Origin: a phage
Length of the DNA stretch: 48,147 nucleotides
Sequence record: PV636260.1
Direction: 5' to 3' (one strand)
The position numbers and the translations under genes are program-made. This document shows, in pieces, positions 1,393 to 47,053 of the stretch (its first letter is position 1; every line of letters begins with the position of its first letter). The notes beneath the pieces were generated by a model that was not told the DNA's origin, made no database searches, and saw only the letters and a list, made by a program, of their open reading frames with translations.

Positions 1393-2040
1393 TTATTCGA
1401 AGTTGGTGATTGATTGAGATTGTACAGGCTTCGCGCTCGTTGCTTCAACCTGTTTTTTCTGTTCCGGTTGTGCCGGGCGAATACCGCGAGCTTTACCGAT
1501 CTCAAACTTAGCCTTAAGTGCGTTGTAGTGATCCTGAATGATTGACTTGCTTGCCGTGTCCGTCTGTCGGTAAGCGTTAGCCCATACCTCTTTCAGTGAT
1601 TCGATATCTTCACACGCATCAAGTTCTTTCTTCCAGTCCTTGACAGATTTTACTGCAAGCTGAGCATCGTCATCACTCTGGCTAATCCCCAGCGCTGCGG
1701 CTAATGAGTAACGTCGAGCATACGTCATTGCGGAACCTACGCCTTGCGGATCGCGCTTTGCAATCGGCATCATCATGAAGAATTTGGCCCACTGCCCGGA
1801 TTTGTGAATAAGCATCGTTTCAAGATGGAAAGTTGTTTCAGTGCTGGTATCCAGCATTGATTGCAGGATCATAATATCGTTATCTGTTAGTGCTGGGCTT
1901 ACTGCCGCCATCATTGCATCAAGAGTTGCATATGAGTTTTTCAGGTGATTGTTTTTAGCGTCCTTCTTTGCTTTCGCGAATTTGTTGCGAGCATTGAACA
2001 GTGCAGGAAGGATTTCGTTTGTTTCTGGTGATAATTGCAT
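1393..2040 (-). CDS. erf: Erf-like single-strand annealing recombination protein
   Basis: Start moved to internal ATG at 2040 with RBS CAGGAGAAG; sequence character of ERF-family annealing proteins; sits between ssb and exonuclease. Confidence 0.7.
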   Translation of the reverse strand: MQLSPETNEILPALFNARNKFAKAKKDAKNNHLKNSYATLDAMMAAVSPALTDNDIMILQSMLDTSTETTFHLETMLIHKSGQWAKFFMMMPIAKRDPQGVGSAMTYARRYSLAAALGISQSDDDAQLAVKSVKDWKKELDACEDIESLKEVWANAYRQTDTASKSIIQDHYNALKAKFEIGKARGIRPAQPEQKKQVEATSAKPVQSQSITNFE

Positions 2041-2114
2041 ATTAACTTCTCCTGATTGGTGTATGAGGTGCATTATAACACCTCATTAATTATTTGTTTA
2101 GCTATTTGTGCCGT

Positions 2115-3179
2115 TTACTTATTTTGGTAACGCACCCATGATGGCGTTTCAAGTTCGATCTCGCTTGCGTCGCCAGCGTACCCAGGCCAAATATCCATTT
2201 CAGAGCAAGCCTTGTAAGTGTGGACTACGCTAATGTACTGGTTACGACCGATCCTGATTTGCTCCATAGTCATACGGTAAGCCAGTGCGATATAAGGCTC
2301 TTTTTTCTCCTGCGCAAGCAATCTAACTACGATCGGGATATCTTCAGGGAAGTTGCCTTCAAAAGCGCCAGCCTGGATTGCGCGTCGTAGCAGATCATGC
2401 TGCAAGGCCATTTTCAGATAATACCCGTGATTATATGCAAGGCGCGGGAACTCCAACGGATTTGCGCTCATCGTTGTTTTGAAGTCGGTGATAATCAGTG
2501 CTTCCGGGAAAATAACGTCTTCGAATACCGGATCTCCATTCTCATCATAACCAGTCAGCACACGACCTGGTACATTCTCTTTGTAGTCCAGATGGTCAAG
2601 TCTAACCTTAACCTTTACGCCGGATATCTCACCGAAGATTGAGATCTCACGCTGCGCAGTTTCGCTATTGATGCACGCTTCATGATCGGGATTTTGCTCA
2701 AGAATGGCCCTCATCTTCATACAGGCATCATATTTATCAGCGTCAACCAGTTGCTTTCCTTCAGCGCGCGCCTCAGCTTCAGCAATCAGTTCAATAAGAT
2801 ATTGAACATTGAGATCTTCACCGCAATCAACCATCATTTTGATGAGGTCAGGGTACTGCTTACCGGATGTACCTTTCAGGCCAAAAGATTTTAATTTTGC
2901 TGCCAGTGCCGTTTGCGAAGTAATAAGATCTTTAAACTCTGACGGAGCAGGACAACGCGCATACGTTGCAGTAAACAGATCTCGACTCTCAAAGTTAGTG
3001 TGCGACTGAGTACCGAACTCCAGCGCTTTCGTTGTCTCATTCTTCTTGAATCGCCAGTTAGCTGGGCAAGTTTGATAAATTTCTGCAAGGCTCGATCCGC
3101 TTACATACTCTGCCGCCCAACCTTCGTTGCTATGATACTCGTCATTAGAAAGCTGACTTGATGTGAATACCTGGAACAT
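2115..3179 (-). CDS. recombination exonuclease, PD-(D/E)XK (YqaJ/lambda-Exo-like)
   Basis: RBS AAGGAG; motif ITDFKTT and surrounding acidic residues typical of YqaJ-type nucleases; adjacent to erf and ssb. Confidence 0.7.
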   Translation of the reverse strand: MFQVFTSSQLSNDEYHSNEGWAAEYVSGSSLAEIYQTCPANWRFKKNETTKALEFGTQSHTNFESRDLFTATYARCPAPSEFKDLITSQTALAAKLKSFGLKGTSGKQYPDLIKMMVDCGEDLNVQYLIELIAEAEARAEGKQLVDADKYDACMKMRAILEQNPDHEACINSETAQREISIFGEISGVKVKVRLDHLDYKENVPGRVLTGYDENGDPVFEDVIFPEALIITDFKTTMSANPLEFPRLAYNHGYYLKMALQHDLLRRAIQAGAFEGNFPEDIPIVVRLLAQEKKEPYIALAYRMTMEQIRIGRNQYISVVHTYKACSEMDIWPGYAGDASEIELETPSWVRYQNK

Positions 3180-3210
3180 TGCGCTTATCTCCTTCGTTTA
3201 CGATGAATCC

Positions 3211-3238
3211 ATTATAGCCATTAACAGCGTTTAGTCAA
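3211..3238 (-). promoter_or_regulatory. sigma70-type promoter for the exo-erf-ssb operon
   Basis: On minus strand TTGACT - 16 bp - TATAAT, about 30 nt upstream of the exonuclease RBS. Confidence 0.65.
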
Positions 3239-3647
3239 TCGGATACATGTAATTGGTGTGTAATAGCGTGTCTATATCGCTCAAGTTACAATCAGCATCA
3301 ACAGAATCAATGGCTTAATCCTGTTTTTATGTGGTGTCTATTTCGTAATACTTGTAACCGCTTTTTCTTAGAAATACACAGATATCCATGAATAGAATCA
3401 AGATTGATTATATTTTGAACAAATATGATAGAAATTTGACGAATCAATCAAATCACCTGTTACACGATATACAACTGTTACACAACAATAATTATATATA
3501 TAAAGCTAAAATTAAATATTATCTATCTATATATATTATATAGAGTTTTTATCATATCTCCCTGCGGTCGAATGAGGTCGATTTTGTAACACACCTCCCG
3601 GTTACAAAAATAGACACCTGTTACACGAAAAAATTGTAATCGAACTA

Positions 3648-3676
3648 TTGCAATAAAAGTAAATGCGACATACAAT
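3648..3676 (+). promoter_or_regulatory. sigma70-type promoter for the cor-like/RBP genes
   Basis: TTGCAA - 17 bp - TACAAT, about 30 nt upstream of ATG 3706. Confidence 0.6.
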
Positions 3677-3705
3677 GCAATCACACTAAAGACGAGGACA
3701 CACGA

Positions 3706-3936
3706 ATGAAAAAGTTAATCACCATTATCGCCGCCGCGTTCATCCTGACTGGTTGCGCTCAGAATCTTAAGAATGGCGACTGTGTTACTTACGCTTACGG
3801 ATCTTGCATGATGCGATTCGTTGACGGTCAGAAAGTGCCTGCTGGCGAAATCGATATGCGATTCAAGGGTCTGTCATCCGACGACGATCAGGGCAACTTT
3901 AGCGGCAAGGTGTCAATCAAAACTAAAGAGTGGTAA
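3706..3936 (+). CDS. small outer-membrane lipoprotein, Cor/Llp-like superinfection exclusion candidate
   Basis: Signal peptide with lipobox LTGC (MKKLITIIAAAFILTGC); 76 aa; sits next to receptor-binding locus downstream of J. Confidence 0.65.
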   Translation: MKKLITIIAAAFILTGCAQNLKNGDCVTYAYGSCMMRFVDGQKVPAGEIDMRFKGLSSDDDQGNFSGKVSIKTKEW

Positions 3937-3938
3937 TT

Positions 3939-4895
3939 ATGGGACAAGGAATATATATAAACCTAAACGACGGTCGCCCGGCAATGGAGATAACTTCGGG
4001 TCTTCGCGCACCGTCATGGTGCGGACCCATACAGGCTGACGGGGTTGATTCATCTGGATCGGTGTTTGATTTTGGTTTGCAAATGAGTCCAGGGTCTACT
4101 GCTTTTTGCCTTCCATCTCAGGCTATCTACATAGACGATATGGATTACATCCCGGAGGTGTATTATTTGACTAGTTTTCAGAAGGTAAATGATTCAACCG
4201 GACGAATAACGGTAGGTAATTTTAACGGGCACGGTGGAAGGAGGATGAGATTTTATGGAAACTGCTACGAAATCCTCCCCGCTCAAGCTGGAAATCAGGG
4301 GATACTTGTTAACGATTCAACGAACTTCGCAGCTATACCGAATAACGCCAGATTGATGAGCGCTGCATTTGTTGGGGGGATTCAGGTTAACGGTCAGGCT
4401 CAGTTGCCAGTACAGGGCGTTCCTTTCGGTATGTGGGATAATCCAAACGTAACACTTGAATCTGACGGCAATACAATATGGTGCAGGGATGCAAACTATA
4501 ACGGGATTGATGACGTTGGCGCTAGCGTATACGTGCAACTCGTAATATTTAATAACACTCCACCACCTCCTGGGCTAGGAATAACTATGAGTAACCCTGC
4601 TGGTCAGATCGTTTTCTCAAGCGTTAGACGCCCATTCGTTCTTGGCGGGACTATGGCGATAAATGATGGTTGGCAGTGGTGCGGTGGATTTTTCCCAATA
4701 CTGAGAACAGGTACGATATGCAGAGTTACGGGTGGATATAATAACATTCGATACAAGGGAGTTTGCATGAGCGGCGGTAACGTGAGAAGCGCACCCGGAA
4801 CAAGGGTGGGTAACTATTCTACTCAGAGCGGCGCTCAATTTCCCTTCAATATAAACATTTCAATGCCAATTCCTTTCACTCCAAACATGTATTAA
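3939..4895 (+). CDS. putative receptor-binding protein (distal tail protein)
   Basis: ATG 3939 after RBS AAAGAG; 318 aa, Gly/Asn-rich with PPPP linker; position between cor-like gene and J, converging on J. Confidence 0.5.
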   Translation: MGQGIYINLNDGRPAMEITSGLRAPSWCGPIQADGVDSSGSVFDFGLQMSPGSTAFCLPSQAIYIDDMDYIPEVYYLTSFQKVNDSTGRITVGNFNGHGGRRMRFYGNCYEILPAQAGNQGILVNDSTNFAAIPNNARLMSAAFVGGIQVNGQAQLPVQGVPFGMWDNPNVTLESDGNTIWCRDANYNGIDDVGASVYVQLVIFNNTPPPPGLGITMSNPAGQIVFSSVRRPFVLGGTMAINDGWQWCGGFFPILRTGTICRVTGGYNNIRYKGVCMSGGNVRSAPGTRVGNYSTQSGAQFPFNINISMPIPFTPNMY

Positions 4896-26809: not shown

Positions 26810-26837
26810 TTCTATTTTCTCTCTTCGTTGTCGATGA

Positions 26838-26887
26838 GGTGACTATATCAAATCACCCCACCGACGTTTTAGCAATTAGTGCTATTT
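26838..26887 (-). promoter_or_regulatory. repeated element (ATAGCACTAATTGCTAAAAC) plus hairpin with -10-like TATAGT
   Basis: Stop codon TAG of the kinase gene lies inside the element; hairpin GGTGA-N10-TCACC. Confidence 0.55.
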
Positions 26888-27454
26888 GTTGATGAACGTA
26901 GCGGCTATGTGCTGAGCGGTAATTTCAGGATGACCCTCAACAGAGAAGAAATCACATTCCTGATAACCGTTAACCCCGATCATATCGTCCAGGTAGATAT
27001 AATCGCGACTGTCGTTATCGAAGTTGCAACCGTTGCGATGTATGCGGCATAGCTTGACCTTGATATCGCCTTCAATCATTTGCAAGATCTCGTCTTTGAA
27101 TCCCCCGTCAGTAAATACCGAAAGTGAGTGCGACTCTTTCACCTTGCTTTCCGCTCGCATACCGAAGAATCGATTTCCGAACTGCGGCTTGATGACTTCC
27201 TCGCTAATCCAGATCATAAACTGGCGCGGGCTTTTACCGTTCAGGATTGACGCTGGCTCTTCTTTGTAACGACGGTCCTCATACAAGAACATGAAATACT
27301 CGTAGTTAGTTTCACCCAGGATTGCCCGAGCAATCTCAAACATTGGTGCTTTGAAGCTGCGCAAAGCTACATGATCGTAAGTGTCAGCCAGGATGCATCC
27401 GATAGTGTCCTTGCCTGCTCCAGGAGCGCCGTTTAAAATGATAGCTGTTTTCAT
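26882..27454 (-). CDS. P-loop nucleotide kinase (dNMP kinase / PNK kinase-like)
   Basis: N-terminal Walker A ILNGAPGAGKDT. Confidence 0.65.
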   Translation of the reverse strand: MKTAIILNGAPGAGKDTIGCILADTYDHVALRSFKAPMFEIARAILGETNYEYFMFLYEDRRYKEEPASILNGKSPRQFMIWISEEVIKPQFGNRFFGMRAESKVKESHSLSVFTDGGFKDEILQMIEGDIKVKLCRIHRNGCNFDNDSRDYIYLDDMIGVNGYQECDFFSVEGHPEITAQHIAATFINK

Positions 27455-27455
27455 A

Positions 27456-27566
27456 TCAGTATCTCCCTAAAAATAATTTTGCCATATTGATAATAGTGTG
27501 ATTGATGATTAGCAGGATGATAACCGTCAATACCGGATGTGCTGCAATAAATTCGTATAGGTTCAT
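27456..27566 (-). CDS. 36-aa hydrophobic peptide between phosphatase and kinase (not in ORF track)
   Basis: ATGA overlap with phosphatase stop, TGA then 1 nt before the kinase ATG; RBS GGGGTAGAG; MNLYEFIAAHPVLTVIILLIINHTIINMAKLFLGRY. Confidence 0.4.
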   Translation of the reverse strand: MNLYEFIAAHPVLTVIILLIINHTIINMAKLFLGRY

Positions 27567-28096
27567 TTCTCTACCCCGTGCGATTTTAAATGATCGTGAA
27601 CGTTATCGCCATAGTCAACTACAGCATATGTGGTTATTCCAAGCGACCGGAATAATGGAATAATTTGCGGTGAATCATCCCAAGCCGCGAGGATGTTTTC
27701 AATACCGATAGCTCGCACCGCTTCCTCTTTCATCACTGTGTCTTTCCGGTTGTCGGTGTGCGGTCGCATGACTAAGTAATCATATCGCGCACCGTGATGC
27801 TTAAGCCATAACTCAGATGCGTAACGAACCTCATCACTTCGCCCGGTTAAAACTATTACGTGATACCCAGCGGCAAACATAGAGTTCATCACCTCAATCG
27901 TGCTCTGGATGGGGTTATCAAATATTGCGGCTCGATTAAACTCAGACCAGCTTTCAGTCAAGTGCAAATCCTTTTTTGGCAACAGGTGAATGCGCTTTGA
28001 TCCGTCACTCAGTGTTCCGTCAAAGTCAAAGATTGCGACGCGGCGCGGACCGAGAAACAGGTTGATAGTTTGACCCCAAATTGTAATTTTATCCAT
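27563..28096 (-). CDS. HAD-superfamily phosphatase (PNK 3'-phosphatase-like)
   Basis: Motif I FDFDGTL near N-terminus; later VLTGR and Asp-rich motifs. Confidence 0.7.
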   Translation of the reverse strand: MDKITIWGQTINLFLGPRRVAIFDFDGTLSDGSKRIHLLPKKDLHLTESWSEFNRAAIFDNPIQSTIEVMNSMFAAGYHVIVLTGRSDEVRYASELWLKHHGARYDYLVMRPHTDNRKDTVMKEEAVRAIGIENILAAWDDSPQIIPLFRSLGITTYAVVDYGDNVHDHLKSHGVEK

Positions 28097-28132
28097 GATT
28101 TATTCCTCTGATCGGTTGTTTAACTCAACGAA

Positions 28133-28181
28133 GGGCACTATATCAAATGCCCTTGAGCAAGTTTTAGCAATTCGTGCTATT
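28133..28181 (-). promoter_or_regulatory. repeated element (ATAGCACGAATTGCTAAAAC) plus hairpin with TATAGT
   Basis: Hairpin GGGCA-N10-TGCCC; element abuts the stop codon of 28180..28626. Confidence 0.55.
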
Positions 28182-28626
28182 ACCAGTAATCTAACTCGCG
28201 TCCAACCCAGGCGTCAAAGTCACTTTGGCAGAATGTGCCGCTATAATTTTCCATCATTTCATCGATCAGGAAGTTGGCTGGCTCTCCGATGCTATAGAAG
28301 TATAAATCAGCAGCGTTACGCGCCCAGCGCCCGGCATCTTTCTTGCTCATCTTCCAGTATTTAATTGCAATCTTCTTGAATGCGCGAACTACGCGCTTGC
28401 GGATCTTGATATGCTTGTATACCGCATTGCAGCCGTAAGCCATATATTCATTGTTGCCAAGATTCTGCATGATGTACGGATTAACGTCTTTTGACGTAAT
28501 CATCAGTTCGCCATCTCCGCGACGCGCATAATAAATGCTTGCTGTCATGTAGTGACCTTTGAACATTCCAATGCCGTACAGGGTATGTTCATCGTTAGGT
28601 GTATCAATGCAAATCAAATGTTTCAT
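28180..28626 (-). CDS. hypothetical protein
   Basis: Start moved to ATG 28626 with RBS GAGGGAA. Confidence 0.5.
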   Translation of the reverse strand: MKHLICIDTPNDEHTLYGIGMFKGHYMTASIYYARRGDGELMITSKDVNPYIMQNLGNNEYMAYGCNAVYKHIKIRKRVVRAFKKIAIKYWKMSKKDAGRWARNAADLYFYSIGEPANFLIDEMMENYSGTFCQSDFDAWVGRELDYW

Positions 28627-28651: not shown

Positions 28652-28700
28652 GGGGAATCATAGCGCATTCCCCTTGATAGGTTTTAGCAATTCGTGCTAT
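28652..28700 (-). promoter_or_regulatory. repeated element plus hairpin with TATGAT
   Basis: ATAGCACGAATTGCTAAAAC; hairpin GGGGAAT-N8-ATTCCCC. Confidence 0.55.
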
Positions 28701-28902
28701 TCGTTTTAATAGTGATGCAAAAATAATTTTTTAAGCACGTCACCACGCGCGCTGAATCGACTTGTGGGAGCATTAAAATTTCGTGGACCAATTGCACTGC
28801 CGACACCTCAGATTTGTAGTAGTGTGCGATTCTGGAGGTATTTGGGCGCATTCCTTCCACTGCGTCACGCGCTGCATCTTCTGCTGTCATGATAGTAGCC
28901 AT
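28684..28902 (-). CDS. hypothetical protein (uncertain; 3' end reads through the repeated element)
   Basis: ORF track only; weak RBS. Confidence 0.3.
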   Translation of the reverse strand: MATIMTAEDAARDAVEGMRPNTSRIAHYYKSEVSAVQLVHEILMLPQVDSARVVTCLKNYFCITIKTNSTNC

Positions 28903-30285: not shown

Positions 30286-30335
30286 AAGGCCACTATATCA
30301 AATGGCCTTGCGGAAGGTTTAGCAATTCGTGCTAT
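30286..30335 (-). promoter_or_regulatory. repeated element plus hairpin with TATAGT
   Basis: ATAGCACGAATTGCTAAAC; hairpin AAGGCCA-N10-TGGCCTT. Confidence 0.55.
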
Positions 30336-30481
30336 CGTTTAACACACATTGTTTTTACTTCGTATCCGAACGGCTTGTTTTCTGCAATTACTTCACGAGC
30401 TTTGTTACATGATTGCTGACTCTCCATGTATACGTGATCCGGCCCGGTGCTCATCAGTATAATCAATACCCATGCAGCCAT
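30332..30481 (-). CDS. 49-aa hypothetical protein with hydrophobic N-terminus (not in ORF track)
   Basis: TAATG coupling to upstream gene, RBS GGTGA; stop TAG is the TAG of the repeated element. Confidence 0.4.
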   Translation of the reverse strand: MAAWVLIILMSTGPDHVYMESQQSCNKAREVIAENKPFGYEVKTMCVKR

Positions 30482-32519: not shown

Positions 32520-32851
32520 TGTCTATAGCTGCATTTTTTATTTTTGTAACCAGTGCAACCGATGCAACCGACTTTTTCTATAAAAGTAAGAACATCTATT
32601 TATGCGCGCGGAATAGTATGTTTTTTATACTATGCATCACGAAATATATGCCACCCTCAAAAAATGCGGTTGCACCTATTACGCCGATTACATACCAATA
32701 TATAATATAATAAATAAATAAATATATATTATCTATCTTATTATTATATATAGATATTTTATTATCTATAGGCCTATCGATTCTCTGGCCATTTTGTAAC
32801 ACCCCTGATGGTATACAACTATTACGACAATTACAACTAACGCATAGACGA

Positions 32852-32871
32852 ATAGCACGTTTTGCTAAAAA
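32852..32871 (+). promoter_or_regulatory. copy of the repeated element within the large intergenic region (no obvious -10 at the usual spacing)
   Basis: ATAGCACGTTTTGCTAAAAA. Confidence 0.4.
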
Positions 32872-35187: not shown

Positions 35188-35327
35188 TTTATATTCACAC
35201 TTTCTATACTGGCAAATTTAACAACGTAAAAAATGTTCGCGTTTACGATAGCCACCAAAAAGCAATGATGCAGAAAGTAGTTCTAGGCGGCACAACCAAA
35301 GAGTGCAAAGTAATTTCTGAGTACTGA
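35184..35327 (+). CDS. 47-aa hypothetical protein (not in ORF track)
   Basis: ATGA coupling with upstream stop; stop TGA immediately before the repeated element. Confidence 0.4.
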   Translation: MIYIHTFYTGKFNNVKNVRVYDSHQKAMMQKVVLGGTTKECKVISEY

Positions 35328-35378
35328 TAGCACGAATAGCTAAAGACAATCAGCAAGGGAGTAAGGTATATTACTCCC
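35327..35378 (+). promoter_or_regulatory. repeated element (ATAGCACGAATAGCTAAAG) plus hairpin with TATATT
   Basis: Hairpin GGGAGTA-N8-TACTCCC. Confidence 0.5.
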
Positions 35379-35632: not shown

Positions 35633-35842
35633 ATGGAACGGGATAATTTCTGGACTCGTTATTTTGCCGCTCTTGATGCCGGGCTTAGTGCGGAATGGTG
35701 TATCAAGGTTGCATATAAGGAAATCACACTTGAGGACGCGCTAGGAAATATGGATATGGACGCAGAAAGCGAATATAATCCAAACTTCGAGTTACCTGGC
35801 GATGATATTGATGAGGACGACGACGATTATATTCCCTGGTAA
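35633..35842 (+). CDS. small highly acidic protein
   Basis: C-terminus PGDDIDEDDDDYIPW; 69 aa. Confidence 0.5.
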   Translation: MERDNFWTRYFAALDAGLSAEWCIKVAYKEITLEDALGNMDMDAESEYNPNFELPGDDIDEDDDDYIPW

Positions 35843-35892
35843 ATAGCACGATTTGTTAATATTGCCGTAAGGTCATTTGATAAAGTGACCTT
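35843..35892 (+). promoter_or_regulatory. repeated element (ATAGCACGATTTGTTAATA) plus hairpin with TAAAGT
   Basis: Hairpin AAGGTCA-N10-TGACCTT. Confidence 0.5.
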
Positions 35893-39950: not shown

Positions 39951-39990
39951 GCCCGAATCCCTTCGGGCGTTTTTATCAATTAGTGCGATC
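39951..39990 (-). promoter_or_regulatory. variant repeated element (GCACTAATTGATAAAAAC) plus hairpin
   Basis: Hairpin GCCCGAA-N4-TTCGGGC followed by TAGTAA. Confidence 0.45.
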
Positions 39991-41131
39991 CTGTCATTTC
40001 TGGACGATAGATGAAGCGACCTATTTCCCCAAACTGCTTATCGTAAACAATTACAGCCGCTTGGCGATATGAGCGCCACCCTCCGCGTGCTGCGTATGCA
40101 TCTTTCGCGCCTAACTGACCGTGCACTTCATCAATACCAAGCGAGTGCTCAGTGATTGTCTGGTGATGCCAGTGACCACTATGAGTATACACATACTTGC
40201 TCTCGCCGAAGTCTGATCGGAAATCTGCGGCCATTGCTGCAAGTCGCGTGTCTGCCTTTTTCATAGTGTGCCCGTGAGTGTATCCCAACAAGGTATTTCC
40301 CCAACGAGTCTTATGCAGAATCATAGGACTAACGTCAACGAATACTCGCGGCTCGTCTTCATAATATGCCGACATTGCAGCGCGTAGCCAAATCATCCCT
40401 GCCTGGTCGTGGTTCCCTTCGATAACCTGGACTTCGACTTCCTTGTGTTTCAGTAGCATTTTGTCGATAGCGCGACGAACAGATCTAATAGCTACATGCA
40501 CCAATTTTGCATATCGTGAATCCTGATCCAGAACGTGACCACTTGCCGGGGTAACAGCATCAAGACCGTCCGAGTGAAGGAAGTCACCGCCGATTAAAAG
40601 AACGGCCTTCTCTGCGTTCGGAGCAATATCGATCGCGTAATTAAAGAAGTCGCTAAGCACTTTTTCCGCTACGTCGGTAGAGTAGTTCTCTCCACATTCA
40701 TGCTTATGAGCAAGCGCGCCAATGTGAAGATCGAATACCGGGTAGAGTGCCAGCTTGCCAATAGCGGTTGTAAGACCTTGCGATGTGAGTAGCTCAGTTG
40801 GCTTTGCTCGCGGCAAGTCTTCACAAAATGCAATGCGTGCAGCTTCCATCATAGCGGCAATCTTCTCACGGTCCTGATCGGTCTTAACCCATCGCACGAC
40901 CTCAGTCCCATCACCGCGAATCATTGTTGATGTGCCTTTTACCATGAAGCCTTCAGGAACGTTTTTAGCAACATGCTCATTGCCGTGAAAGTGGCCTTCT
41001 TTTGCCAATTTTGCGTGTCGAGCCTCAACAGTGCGAATATGCATACCGTACTTTTCCGCGATCTCGCGAAGTGTAAGTCCGTTCATACGTTCTTCGATAA
41101 GTTGCTCGGTAGTGATTTTAGCTTGTGACAT
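39980..41131 (-). CDS. calcineurin-like metallophosphoesterase with N-terminal HTH domain
   Basis: HTH-like LTLREIAEKYGMHIRTVEARHAKL; phosphoesterase motifs GGDFLH and GNHD. Confidence 0.7.
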   Translation of the reverse strand: MSQAKITTEQLIEERMNGLTLREIAEKYGMHIRTVEARHAKLAKEGHFHGNEHVAKNVPEGFMVKGTSTMIRGDGTEVVRWVKTDQDREKIAAMMEAARIAFCEDLPRAKPTELLTSQGLTTAIGKLALYPVFDLHIGALAHKHECGENYSTDVAEKVLSDFFNYAIDIAPNAEKAVLLIGGDFLHSDGLDAVTPASGHVLDQDSRYAKLVHVAIRSVRRAIDKMLLKHKEVEVQVIEGNHDQAGMIWLRAAMSAYYEDEPRVFVDVSPMILHKTRWGNTLLGYTHGHTMKKADTRLAAMAADFRSDFGESKYVYTHSGHWHHQTITEHSLGIDEVHGQLGAKDAYAARGGWRSYRQAAVIVYDKQFGEIGRFIYRPEMTGSH

Positions 41132-41938: not shown

Positions 41939-41977
41939 ACCCGACTTTCGCCGGGTATTTTTAGCAATTAGTGCTGT
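41939..41977 (-). promoter_or_regulatory. repeated element (AGCACTAATTGCTAAAAAT) plus hairpin, TATAGT after the hairpin
   Basis: Hairpin ACCCG-N8-CGGGT. Confidence 0.5.
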
Positions 41978-42219
41978 ACGATTGTATCAGCTTTAAGTTC
42001 TTCCACGTCTTTCTGTATGATTGAAGGCCAATTCTCTATGTATTCATTTTTTATCTCATCGAAAGACATATCAAGAGAACTAGTGAACTCCCACAGATCG
42101 CAACCAATAACATCCTGAGTCAATCCGTTTCGCTCCATAATTTCGCAGCAGGTAGCTCGATAAAGCAGCCATAAACCTTGATCAGTTAACTTAACCGGAA
42201 TCATTTTCTCGTTAATCAT
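41968..42219 (-). CDS. hypothetical protein
   Basis: ATGA coupling with the dam stop; RBS GAGGAAAG. Confidence 0.5.
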   Translation of the reverse strand: MINEKMIPVKLTDQGLWLLYRATCCEIMERNGLTQDVIGCDLWEFTSSLDMSFDEIKNEYIENWPSIIQKDVEELKADTIVQH

Positions 42220-47010: not shown

Positions 47011-47053
47011 ATAGCACAATGATAAAATCAGCGTTTAGCAATTCGTGCTATTT
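47011..47053. promoter_or_regulatory. head-to-head pair of repeated elements upstream of the tail fiber gene
   Basis: ATAGCACAATGATAAAATC (plus) and the complement of ATAGCACGAATTGCTAAAC; then RBS AAGGAG and ATG 47072. Confidence 0.5.

Follow-up and report, generated by a model that had tools for sequence, protein, structure and literature searches.

Why does a T1-like phage encode a HAD phosphatase and a P-loop kinase as separate neighbouring genes, with a 36-residue hydrophobic open reading frame (ORF) between them, and what would such a pair do? The question is raised by sequence record PV636260.1, of which the 48,147-nucleotide (nt) stretch analysed here (the window) is an almost complete Tunavirus genome (T1-like siphovirus, Drexlerviridae) with approximately 95% identity to sequenced phages. 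According to the ORF listing and the sequence, three genes follow one another on the minus strand: the HAD phosphatase gene (27563-28096; 177 residues, with FDFDGTL at residues 23-29), the small ORF (27456-27566; 36 residues, peptide MNLYEFIAAHPVLTVIILLIINHTIINMAKLFLGRY) and the P-loop kinase gene (26882-27454; 190 residues, with GAPGAGKDT at residues 9-17). The HAD stop codon and the ATG of the small ORF share four nucleotides (ATGA, 27563-27566), the stop of the small ORF ends at 27456 and the kinase ATG is at 27454, leaving a gap of 1 nt, and the Shine-Dalgarno sequence of the kinase (AGGGAG) lies within the final codons of the 36-residue ORF. The initial annotation of this DNA had described this arrangement, and its coordinates were confirmed. 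Matches to the 1.6-kb region were found in 120 phage records, the top one being Escherichia phage SA12KD (95.3% identity over the full length), followed by AV106, ADB-2, ISF002 and the Sfin phages. GenBank relatives carry annotations for all three genes, and the T1 orthologues of the two enzymes (genes 64-63-62 region) are 86% (HAD) and 99% (kinase) identical, the genes lying in the early region in both phages.

The HAD protein is a stand-alone phosphatase of the T4 Pnkp / Pnkp1 3'-phosphatase lineage. It scores 62.6 bits against the Pfam family HAD_PNKP (PF25109; cut-off 27.6), its orthologues in K1ind1 (72.1 bits) and LAh5 (65.2 bits) likewise exceed that cut-off, and it matches PHROG 415. 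A profile built from 22 homologues matched only three distinct sequences in the PDB, namely Pnkp1 of the Pnkp1-Rnl-Hen1 system (3e-14), the T4 Pnkp phosphatase domain (2e-9) and full-length T4 Pnkp (8e-9). The hhalign alignment to T4 Pnkp covers the entire phosphatase domain (T4 residues 152-297, E 5e-12), and in a fold comparison the nearest structures were the solved Pnkp phosphatase domains. The HAD motifs are all present (DxDGT, the motif II Ser/Thr, the motif III Lys and the motif IV DD): in the alignments D24, D26, R35, T84 and R86 correspond to T4 Pnkp D165, D167, R176, S211 and R213, and D119, K123, D140 and D141 to D254, K258, D277 and D278, with most of these catalytic residues invariant or at least 90% conserved among the 22 homologues. 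Mutagenesis in the Shuman laboratory reportedly found the essential residues of T4 Pnkp to include Arg176, Arg213 and Asp254. A sugar phosphatase identity was ruled out by the Pnkp-type Pfam, profile and hhalign matches.

Among the closest known systems for the window HAD protein is the C-terminal HAD 3'-phosphatase domain of T4 Pnkp (PseT; PDB 1ltq, 5uj0), from which it differs in several respects. It stands alone, at 177 residues and with no fused Pnk kinase domain, so that the contrast with the fused T4 enzyme drawn when the locus was first described is borne out. It also possesses an extra segment of approximately 21 residues (HLLP..DLHLTESWSEFN), conserved in its family and separating motifs I and II, as well as an N-terminal beta-hairpin, and the window genome contains no RNA ligase partner. 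The Pnkp1 of Capnocytophaga gingivalis (PDB 4xrp) is a fused kinase-phosphatase that serves RNA repair together with a ligase and Hen1, partners that are absent here. Because the HAD protein has no kinase domain, the label "polynucleotide kinase" that it usually bears in GenBank relatives is a misnomer. The gene is not of constant length, since one sub-clade (L004, L006, L013, L016 and L001) encodes a 203-residue protein with a 78-nt, 26-residue C-terminal extension. We note as a side observation that Pap of phage P1 (gene pap, NC_005856, 83829-84266) is 36.5% identical to the window HAD protein over 81% of its length, and therefore a stand-alone Pnkp-type phosphatase also occurs in a temperate myovirus; no adjacent kinase was noted there.

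The kinase has a different affiliation, and belongs to the T4 gp1 deoxynucleoside monophosphate (dNMP) kinase family (GxxGxGKDT), being of gp1 type and not of Pnk type. Pfam, NCBIfam and PDB searches, whether with the single sequence or with a 31-sequence profile, gave generic sub-threshold P-loop matches only, and the family placement rested on PHROGs, a fold search and hhalign. The protein matches PHROG 139, "deoxynucleoside monophosphate kinase", at 5e-47, and its fold is nearest to that of gp1. A 128-sequence kinase profile aligned with T4 gp1 at 95.4% probability (E 2e-8, 173 columns) from kinase residues 2-185 to gp1 residues 1-236, that is, with homology over the full length, as opposed to only the 25-residue P-loop when the same profile was aligned with T4 Pnkp; a smaller profile matched the N-terminal half of gp1 (E 2.5e-5). 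The P-loop is of the GK-D-T and not the GK-S/T type (GAPGAGKDT, for which the gp1 counterpart is GVKRSGKDT), and G14, K15 and D16 are invariant in sets of 31 and 16 homologues. Common to both proteins are the GKDT P-loop, Y-D-R, LNGKSP, an R..M helix and a D-x5-E segment.

The differences from gp1 (PDB 1dek) are nonetheless considerable. Identity is only about 13-20%, and the window kinase has 190 residues as compared to 241, with a gp1 insertion of some 36 residues missing. The gp1 DTR segment aligns to D116-G-G-F...E122, in which the Asp and Glu are retained and the Arg is lost, and elsewhere in the kinase family an invariant D148-S-R150 replaces the NDTH of gp1. With 5048 representative clusters at E <=0.001 and 1431 phage records this is a large family, and its members are often labelled "hypothetical" in Drexlerviridae records. 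Profile searches to separate dNMP kinases from polynucleotide kinases had been suggested for this gene; they place it with the dNMP kinases, by the full-length gp1 alignment. Such a kinase together with a sugar phosphatase had been foreseen as the outcome that would speak against a role in end healing or nucleotide pool remodelling, and only its first half was found, the phosphatase being of Pnkp type.

That the two enzymes belong together is suggested by their arrangement elsewhere. We compared 92 related loci that hold both genes, and in 92/92 the HAD gene is upstream of the kinase gene on the same strand. In 39 of these the two genes abut or overlap; most share 4 nt or 1 nt, and two leave a gap of 2-4 nt. 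These direct loci form three groups: Webervirus-like Drexlerviridae, Kagunavirus (K1ind1 and relatives) and Ahphunavirus (the autographivirus LAh5). The ancestral layout is one of HAD and kinase genes with overlapping stop and start. There are also natural fusions, P0216 (403 residues, in three contigs) and P0237 (461 residues), with HAD_PNKP at the N-terminus and the kinase at the C-terminus, and their existence argues that HAD and kinase act together. The two fusions are only 37% identical, linker included, yet have in common a conserved linker of 65-110 residues (..GPELHG..), which argues that the fusion is old and stable. Judged from these sequence comparisons, the HAD-kinase pair is in all likelihood a conserved and ancient functional unit.

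A third gene recurs with the pair. In 38 of the 39 direct-overlap loci a gene for an Mre11/SbcD-like protein was mapped by tblastn 5' of the HAD gene, usually within about 40 nt, and in the P0216 locus (fusion gene at 5001-6212 of L114) the Mre11-like exonuclease gene directly follows. Among the exonuclease homologues the Metallophos Pfam match reaches the cut-off in LAh5 and falls below it in K1ind1 and L073. An identical exonuclease neighbourhood has been reported in the KanT1 paper (PMC13164509). The window itself encodes an Mre11/SbcD-like metallophosphoesterase ("DNA repair exonuclease"; PHROG 704, 7e-157) at 39980-41131 on the minus strand, and we infer that this nuclease is the functional partner of the pair.

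The more distant kinase homologues add a metabolic context. The P0072 kinase (42% identity) is flanked by an RNase_T-type exonuclease and an NT5C 5'(3')-deoxyribonucleotidase, with ThyX and ribonucleotide reductase (RNR) nearby, and the P0071 kinase follows the small and large subunits of RNR. After the kinase in the rV5-like APECc02 come NT5C (27.1 bits, cut-off 24.8), ThyX, thymidylate synthase and RNR; here gp121/gp120 place a kinase of the same family directly beside a HAD nucleotidase, the difference being that this HAD protein is of the NT5C and not the Pnkp lineage and that the kinase comes first, in the opposite order. The combination of this kinase with a HAD nucleotidase is therefore a recurrent one that involves HAD proteins of two lineages. 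Kuravirus has a 5'-3' exonuclease after its kinase domain. In L073-type loci (L073, L077, L097, L098 and L100; viral contigs of about 44 kb) the order, at 1792-4520, is exonuclease, kinase and ATP-dependent DNA ligase (DNA_ligase_OB_2, 48.6 bits; DNA_ligase_A_M, 25.7 bits, just below its cut-off of 26.2); the kinase and ligase genes overlap and the HAD gene is absent. The kinase homologues thus always keep company with genes for nucleases and nucleotide metabolism, in two cases including a HAD nucleotidase of another lineage.

Taken together, the nucleotide-metabolism clusters around the kinase homologues, the HAD-kinase linkage, the exonuclease partner and the biology of T1 and TLS lead us to suggest, at about even odds (a probability of roughly 0.5), that the pair is a salvage module feeding host-derived nucleotides into phage DNA synthesis. 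The biology is that T1 and TLS break down the host chromosome and recycle the nucleotides by means of genes yet to be identified, and that T1-type phages have no DNA polymerase (PMC11447400). The RefSeq annotation of T1 contains no polymerase, RNR or ligase, and genes for nucleotide synthesis are likewise lacking in T1-type phages. Enhanced nucleotide supply was proposed independently by the KanT1 authors ("enhancing nucleotide supply"; PMC13164509). Host DNA would be degraded by the Mre11-like nuclease together with other nucleases, and the Pnkp-type HAD protein would strip 3'-phosphates either from DNA ends and oligonucleotides, letting the exonucleases proceed, or from 3'-phosphorylated mononucleotides. 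The gp1-type kinase would then convert the 5'-dNMPs released by the nucleases to the corresponding diphosphates (dNDPs), and host nucleoside diphosphate kinase would complete the phosphorylation. There are parallels in T4, where gp46/47 (Rad50/Mre11) and gp1 serve the same purpose and where the Pnkp phosphatase also hydrolyses deoxynucleoside 3'-monophosphates.

Several points weigh against this proposal. Those relatives of the phosphatase that have been characterised, T4 Pnkp and Pnkp1, act in nucleic-acid end repair, and a mononucleotide phosphatase and a kinase look antagonistic unless the phosphatase is 3'-specific. E. coli already possesses all four nucleoside monophosphate kinases. The change of the gp1 DTR to DGGF means that the catalytic details of the kinase differ from those of gp1. 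In the window the exonuclease gene lies some 12 kb from the HAD-kinase pair; the trio has become separated in the Tunavirus lineage. The L073-type layout of exonuclease, kinase and ligase without HAD also fits DNA-end repair. Literature searches for either family branch returned genome descriptions only, with no biochemical data, and a search on Drexlerviridae "PNK" and anticodon nucleases found no functional work, the retron Eco2 paper having PNK as a reagent.

Foremost among the alternatives is that the pair might be a split, non-orthologous Pnkp, in which the HAD protein removes 3'-phosphates and the kinase phosphorylates the 5'-OH ends of broken DNA or RNA. The breaks would come from host nucleases, defence systems or recombination-dependent replication, and sealing would be left to host LigA (or RtcB/RNA ligase). 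The phosphatase, as a true Pnkp-lineage domain with its catalytic residues all present, would suit this role, as would a constant neighbour that is an Mre11-like DNA-end nuclease and the ATP-dependent DNA ligase that adjoins the kinase in L073-type loci. Mammalian PNKP (FHA-phosphatase-kinase) has the phosphatase-then-kinase order with a HAD DxDGT phosphatase and a T4 Pnk-type kinase domain. That order is alike in the gene pair and in the P0216 and P0237 fusions, in which the phosphatase is N-terminal and the kinase C-terminal; the kinase here is gp1-type, however, and there is no FHA domain. It is the kinase that counts against a split Pnkp, being homologous to gp1 over its full length and having RNR, ThyX and NT5C for company, and no Pnk-type 5'-OH kinase domain was found in the HAD protein or encoded alongside it. 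No ligase was found among the 10 of 20 window ORFs of at least 220 residues that were scanned against PHROGs (the other 10 match T1 tail, capsid, portal, terminase and helicase genes by position and size). The absence of a nearby ligase, remarked upon at the outset, thus holds for the PHROG-scanned window ORFs and for the T1 RefSeq annotation. On balance we regard a split Pnkp as possible but unlikely.

A bolder proposal, which is speculative and which we likewise think improbable, is that the Pnkp-type phosphatase, gp1-type kinase and Mre11-like nuclease form an unrecognised, widespread phage system, a second and independently assembled "PNKP" with an unexpected substrate. Its kinase half would have been recruited from nucleotide kinases, and its substrates might be, for example, 5'-OH DNA ends, which host LigA seals, or 3',5'-bis- or 3'-phosphorylated nucleotides that the phosphatase would channel to the kinase.

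Alternatively, the pair might be a counter-defence module, acting to restore or destroy particular nucleotides, for instance by replenishing deoxynucleoside triphosphate (dNTP) pools once host dNTPase or deaminase defences have acted, or by dephosphorylating 3'-phosphorylated signalling nucleotides. Its place among the early genes, in a stretch with many small accessory genes, and its wide spread across unrelated lytic phages would be in keeping with this; neither enzyme has a significant PADLOC match, though, the neighbourhoods are those of DNA and nucleotide metabolism and not known anti-defence loci, and no support was found in the literature, so that we consider a counter-defence function quite improbable.

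There remains the 36-residue ORF, which had been suggested to couple the two enzymes and to bring them to the membrane. The peptide is hydrophobic, with a best 19-residue Kyte-Doolittle mean of 2.22 and one helix, and it has no match in Pfam, PHROGs, NCBIfam or PADLOC. Its nucleotide changes were analysed in the window and 13 close relatives, over 111 nt with 25 variable sites. Seventeen of these 25 are third positions of codons (binomial p = 4e-4), and the ratio of synonymous to non-synonymous changes is 19:6 in frame as compared to 4:19 and 2:22 in the other frames; the flanking genes show a third-position bias likewise. Sfin-4, AV106 and Sfin-1 (CDS17) carry the ORF as an annotated hypothetical CDS, and the relatives with a 203-residue HAD protein retain a 4-nt overlap with the small ORF (GTGA or ATGA), which has its own AAGGAG 5' of the start. 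Because of this third-position and synonymous bias, the kept overlap and the annotation in relatives, we conclude that the ORF is a real gene, more than a chance ORF, and is under purifying selection. It may be translated by re-initiation at the ATGA and hand ribosomes on to the kinase. An overlapping 39-residue ORF in another frame (2885-3004 in L005, L008, L009, L011, L012 and L015) is probably spurious and was rejected as coding, changes in its frame being mostly non-synonymous; it is closed in the window.

A real gene need not be a constant one, and the peptide is best described as an optional, dispensable, lineage-specific insert that lies outside the conserved module. A tblastn search found no homologue of it in T1, where genes 64-63-62 have an HNH endonuclease gene in the place of the 36-residue ORF. 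In T1 and two relatives (L003, L007 and L010) the slot is filled by a 164-residue HNH/AP2 homing endonuclease gene (HNH_3, 78.9 bits); this T1 gene 63 (HNH_3/AP2; 2504-2998 of L003) overlaps the HAD end and has its stop 2 nt before the kinase start. The slot is empty in the 39 direct-overlap loci and in the fusions. In other Drexlerviridae it holds 389-2072 nt of unrelated small genes, which are often but not always membrane proteins. The junction is most readily understood as an insertion slot, a hot spot for accessory genes and homing endonucleases, and in Tunavirus it would have been turned into one that received the 36-residue membrane peptide here and the HNH endonuclease in T1. Separately, a membrane family of about 61 residues with two helices (M..LL.FLVV.FY.SG.F.FRAL.K..D.TDKD...W), to which the 36-residue peptide is unrelated by tblastn, fills the HAD-kinase gap in many non-Tunavirus Drexlerviridae (L041, 2606-2791; L044, 1731-1916; L064, 2422-2604; L065, 2234-2452; and others).

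That the peptide couples the enzymes physically or translationally and anchors them at the membrane, an idea to which the conserved 4-nt and 1-nt junctions, an ATGA/GTGA overlap that persists despite a differing HAD C-terminus, the purifying selection on a hydrophobic peptide and the unrelated small membrane proteins in the same slot (e.g., the 61-residue two-helix family) lend something, is nevertheless very improbable, since the peptide is missing from T1 (which has the HNH gene instead, with no homologue elsewhere), from the 39 direct-overlap loci and from the fusion proteins, since several long-insert lineages have no membrane ORF in the slot, and since neither enzyme has a hydrophobic segment. 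The initial annotation's interpretation is accordingly supported in part; its reading of the peptide as a coupling device is not borne out.

Much of this locus was already known and is fairly ordinary, as the orthologues are annotated in near-identical public genomes and have been described in T1, TLS and KanT1. The description of the T1 genome included genes 64, 63 and 62, and TLS gp09/gp14 are orthologues of the pair, with four genes between the enzymes. The TLS (PMC11447400) and KanT1 (PMC13164509) papers refer to the enzymes as PNK and dNMP kinase and propose a part in nucleotide supply. What is added here is the assignment of the kinase to the gp1 type, the antiquity of the pair with its overlaps and fusions, the constant Mre11-like partner, and a small peptide that is real but dispensable. 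One practical consequence concerns a widespread mis-annotation: hundreds of Drexlerviridae records give the phosphatase-only protein as "polynucleotide kinase" and often leave the real kinase as "hypothetical". The exonuclease, phosphatase and kinase provide concrete candidates for the genes of T1-type host-DNA degradation and reuse, and the fusions make a modest but testable point on phage nucleotide economy. The peptide, for its part, illustrates how a translationally coupled junction may come to receive accessory genes and homing endonucleases.

Lastly, the three genes are bracketed by a repeated intergenic element. A motif search found nine copies of a 20-mer, in gene sense AATAGCAC[G/T]AATTGCTAAAA, in the window as compared to 0.01 expected (26867-26886, 28162-28181, 28682-28701, 30317-30336, 32851-32870, 35326-35345, 35842-35861, 41959-41978 and 47033-47052), each at, over or just past the stop codon of the upstream gene, and in most copies followed by a short GC hairpin and then the ribosome-binding site of the next gene. 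The element upstream of the HAD gene (28097-28181, minus strand) comprises a 20-mer (28162-28181) that adjoins the preceding gene at its stop codon (28180-28182), a hairpin (28131-28154) and then the HAD Shine-Dalgarno sequence; a second (26836-26886, minus strand) has its 20-mer (26867-26886) over the kinase stop and a hairpin at 26836-26859, and delimits the three-gene cassette at its 3' end. We take the three ORFs as one cassette because these two copies flank them and none lies inside. The hairpin loop reads TTTGATATAG (gene sense) in several copies, including both that flank the cassette, and with the next base it gives TGATATAGT, an extended -10-like sequence; about 22 nt past TTGCTA there is a -10-like TATAGT, TATGAT or TATATT, inside the GC hairpin in most copies. 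The SA12KD annotators call the hairpin a terminator, and a simple promoter/terminator scan of the window did not detect the intergenic elements. The 20-mer and hairpin look like a phage-specific promoter or terminator module dividing the early regions into cassettes, and the element may act as a promoter. Elsewhere in the window, a 321-residue ORF (3930-4895, plus strand) with a hit to PHROG 1265 "membrane protein" (moron / host takeover category; 1e-125) sits between the recombination genes and the tail genes.

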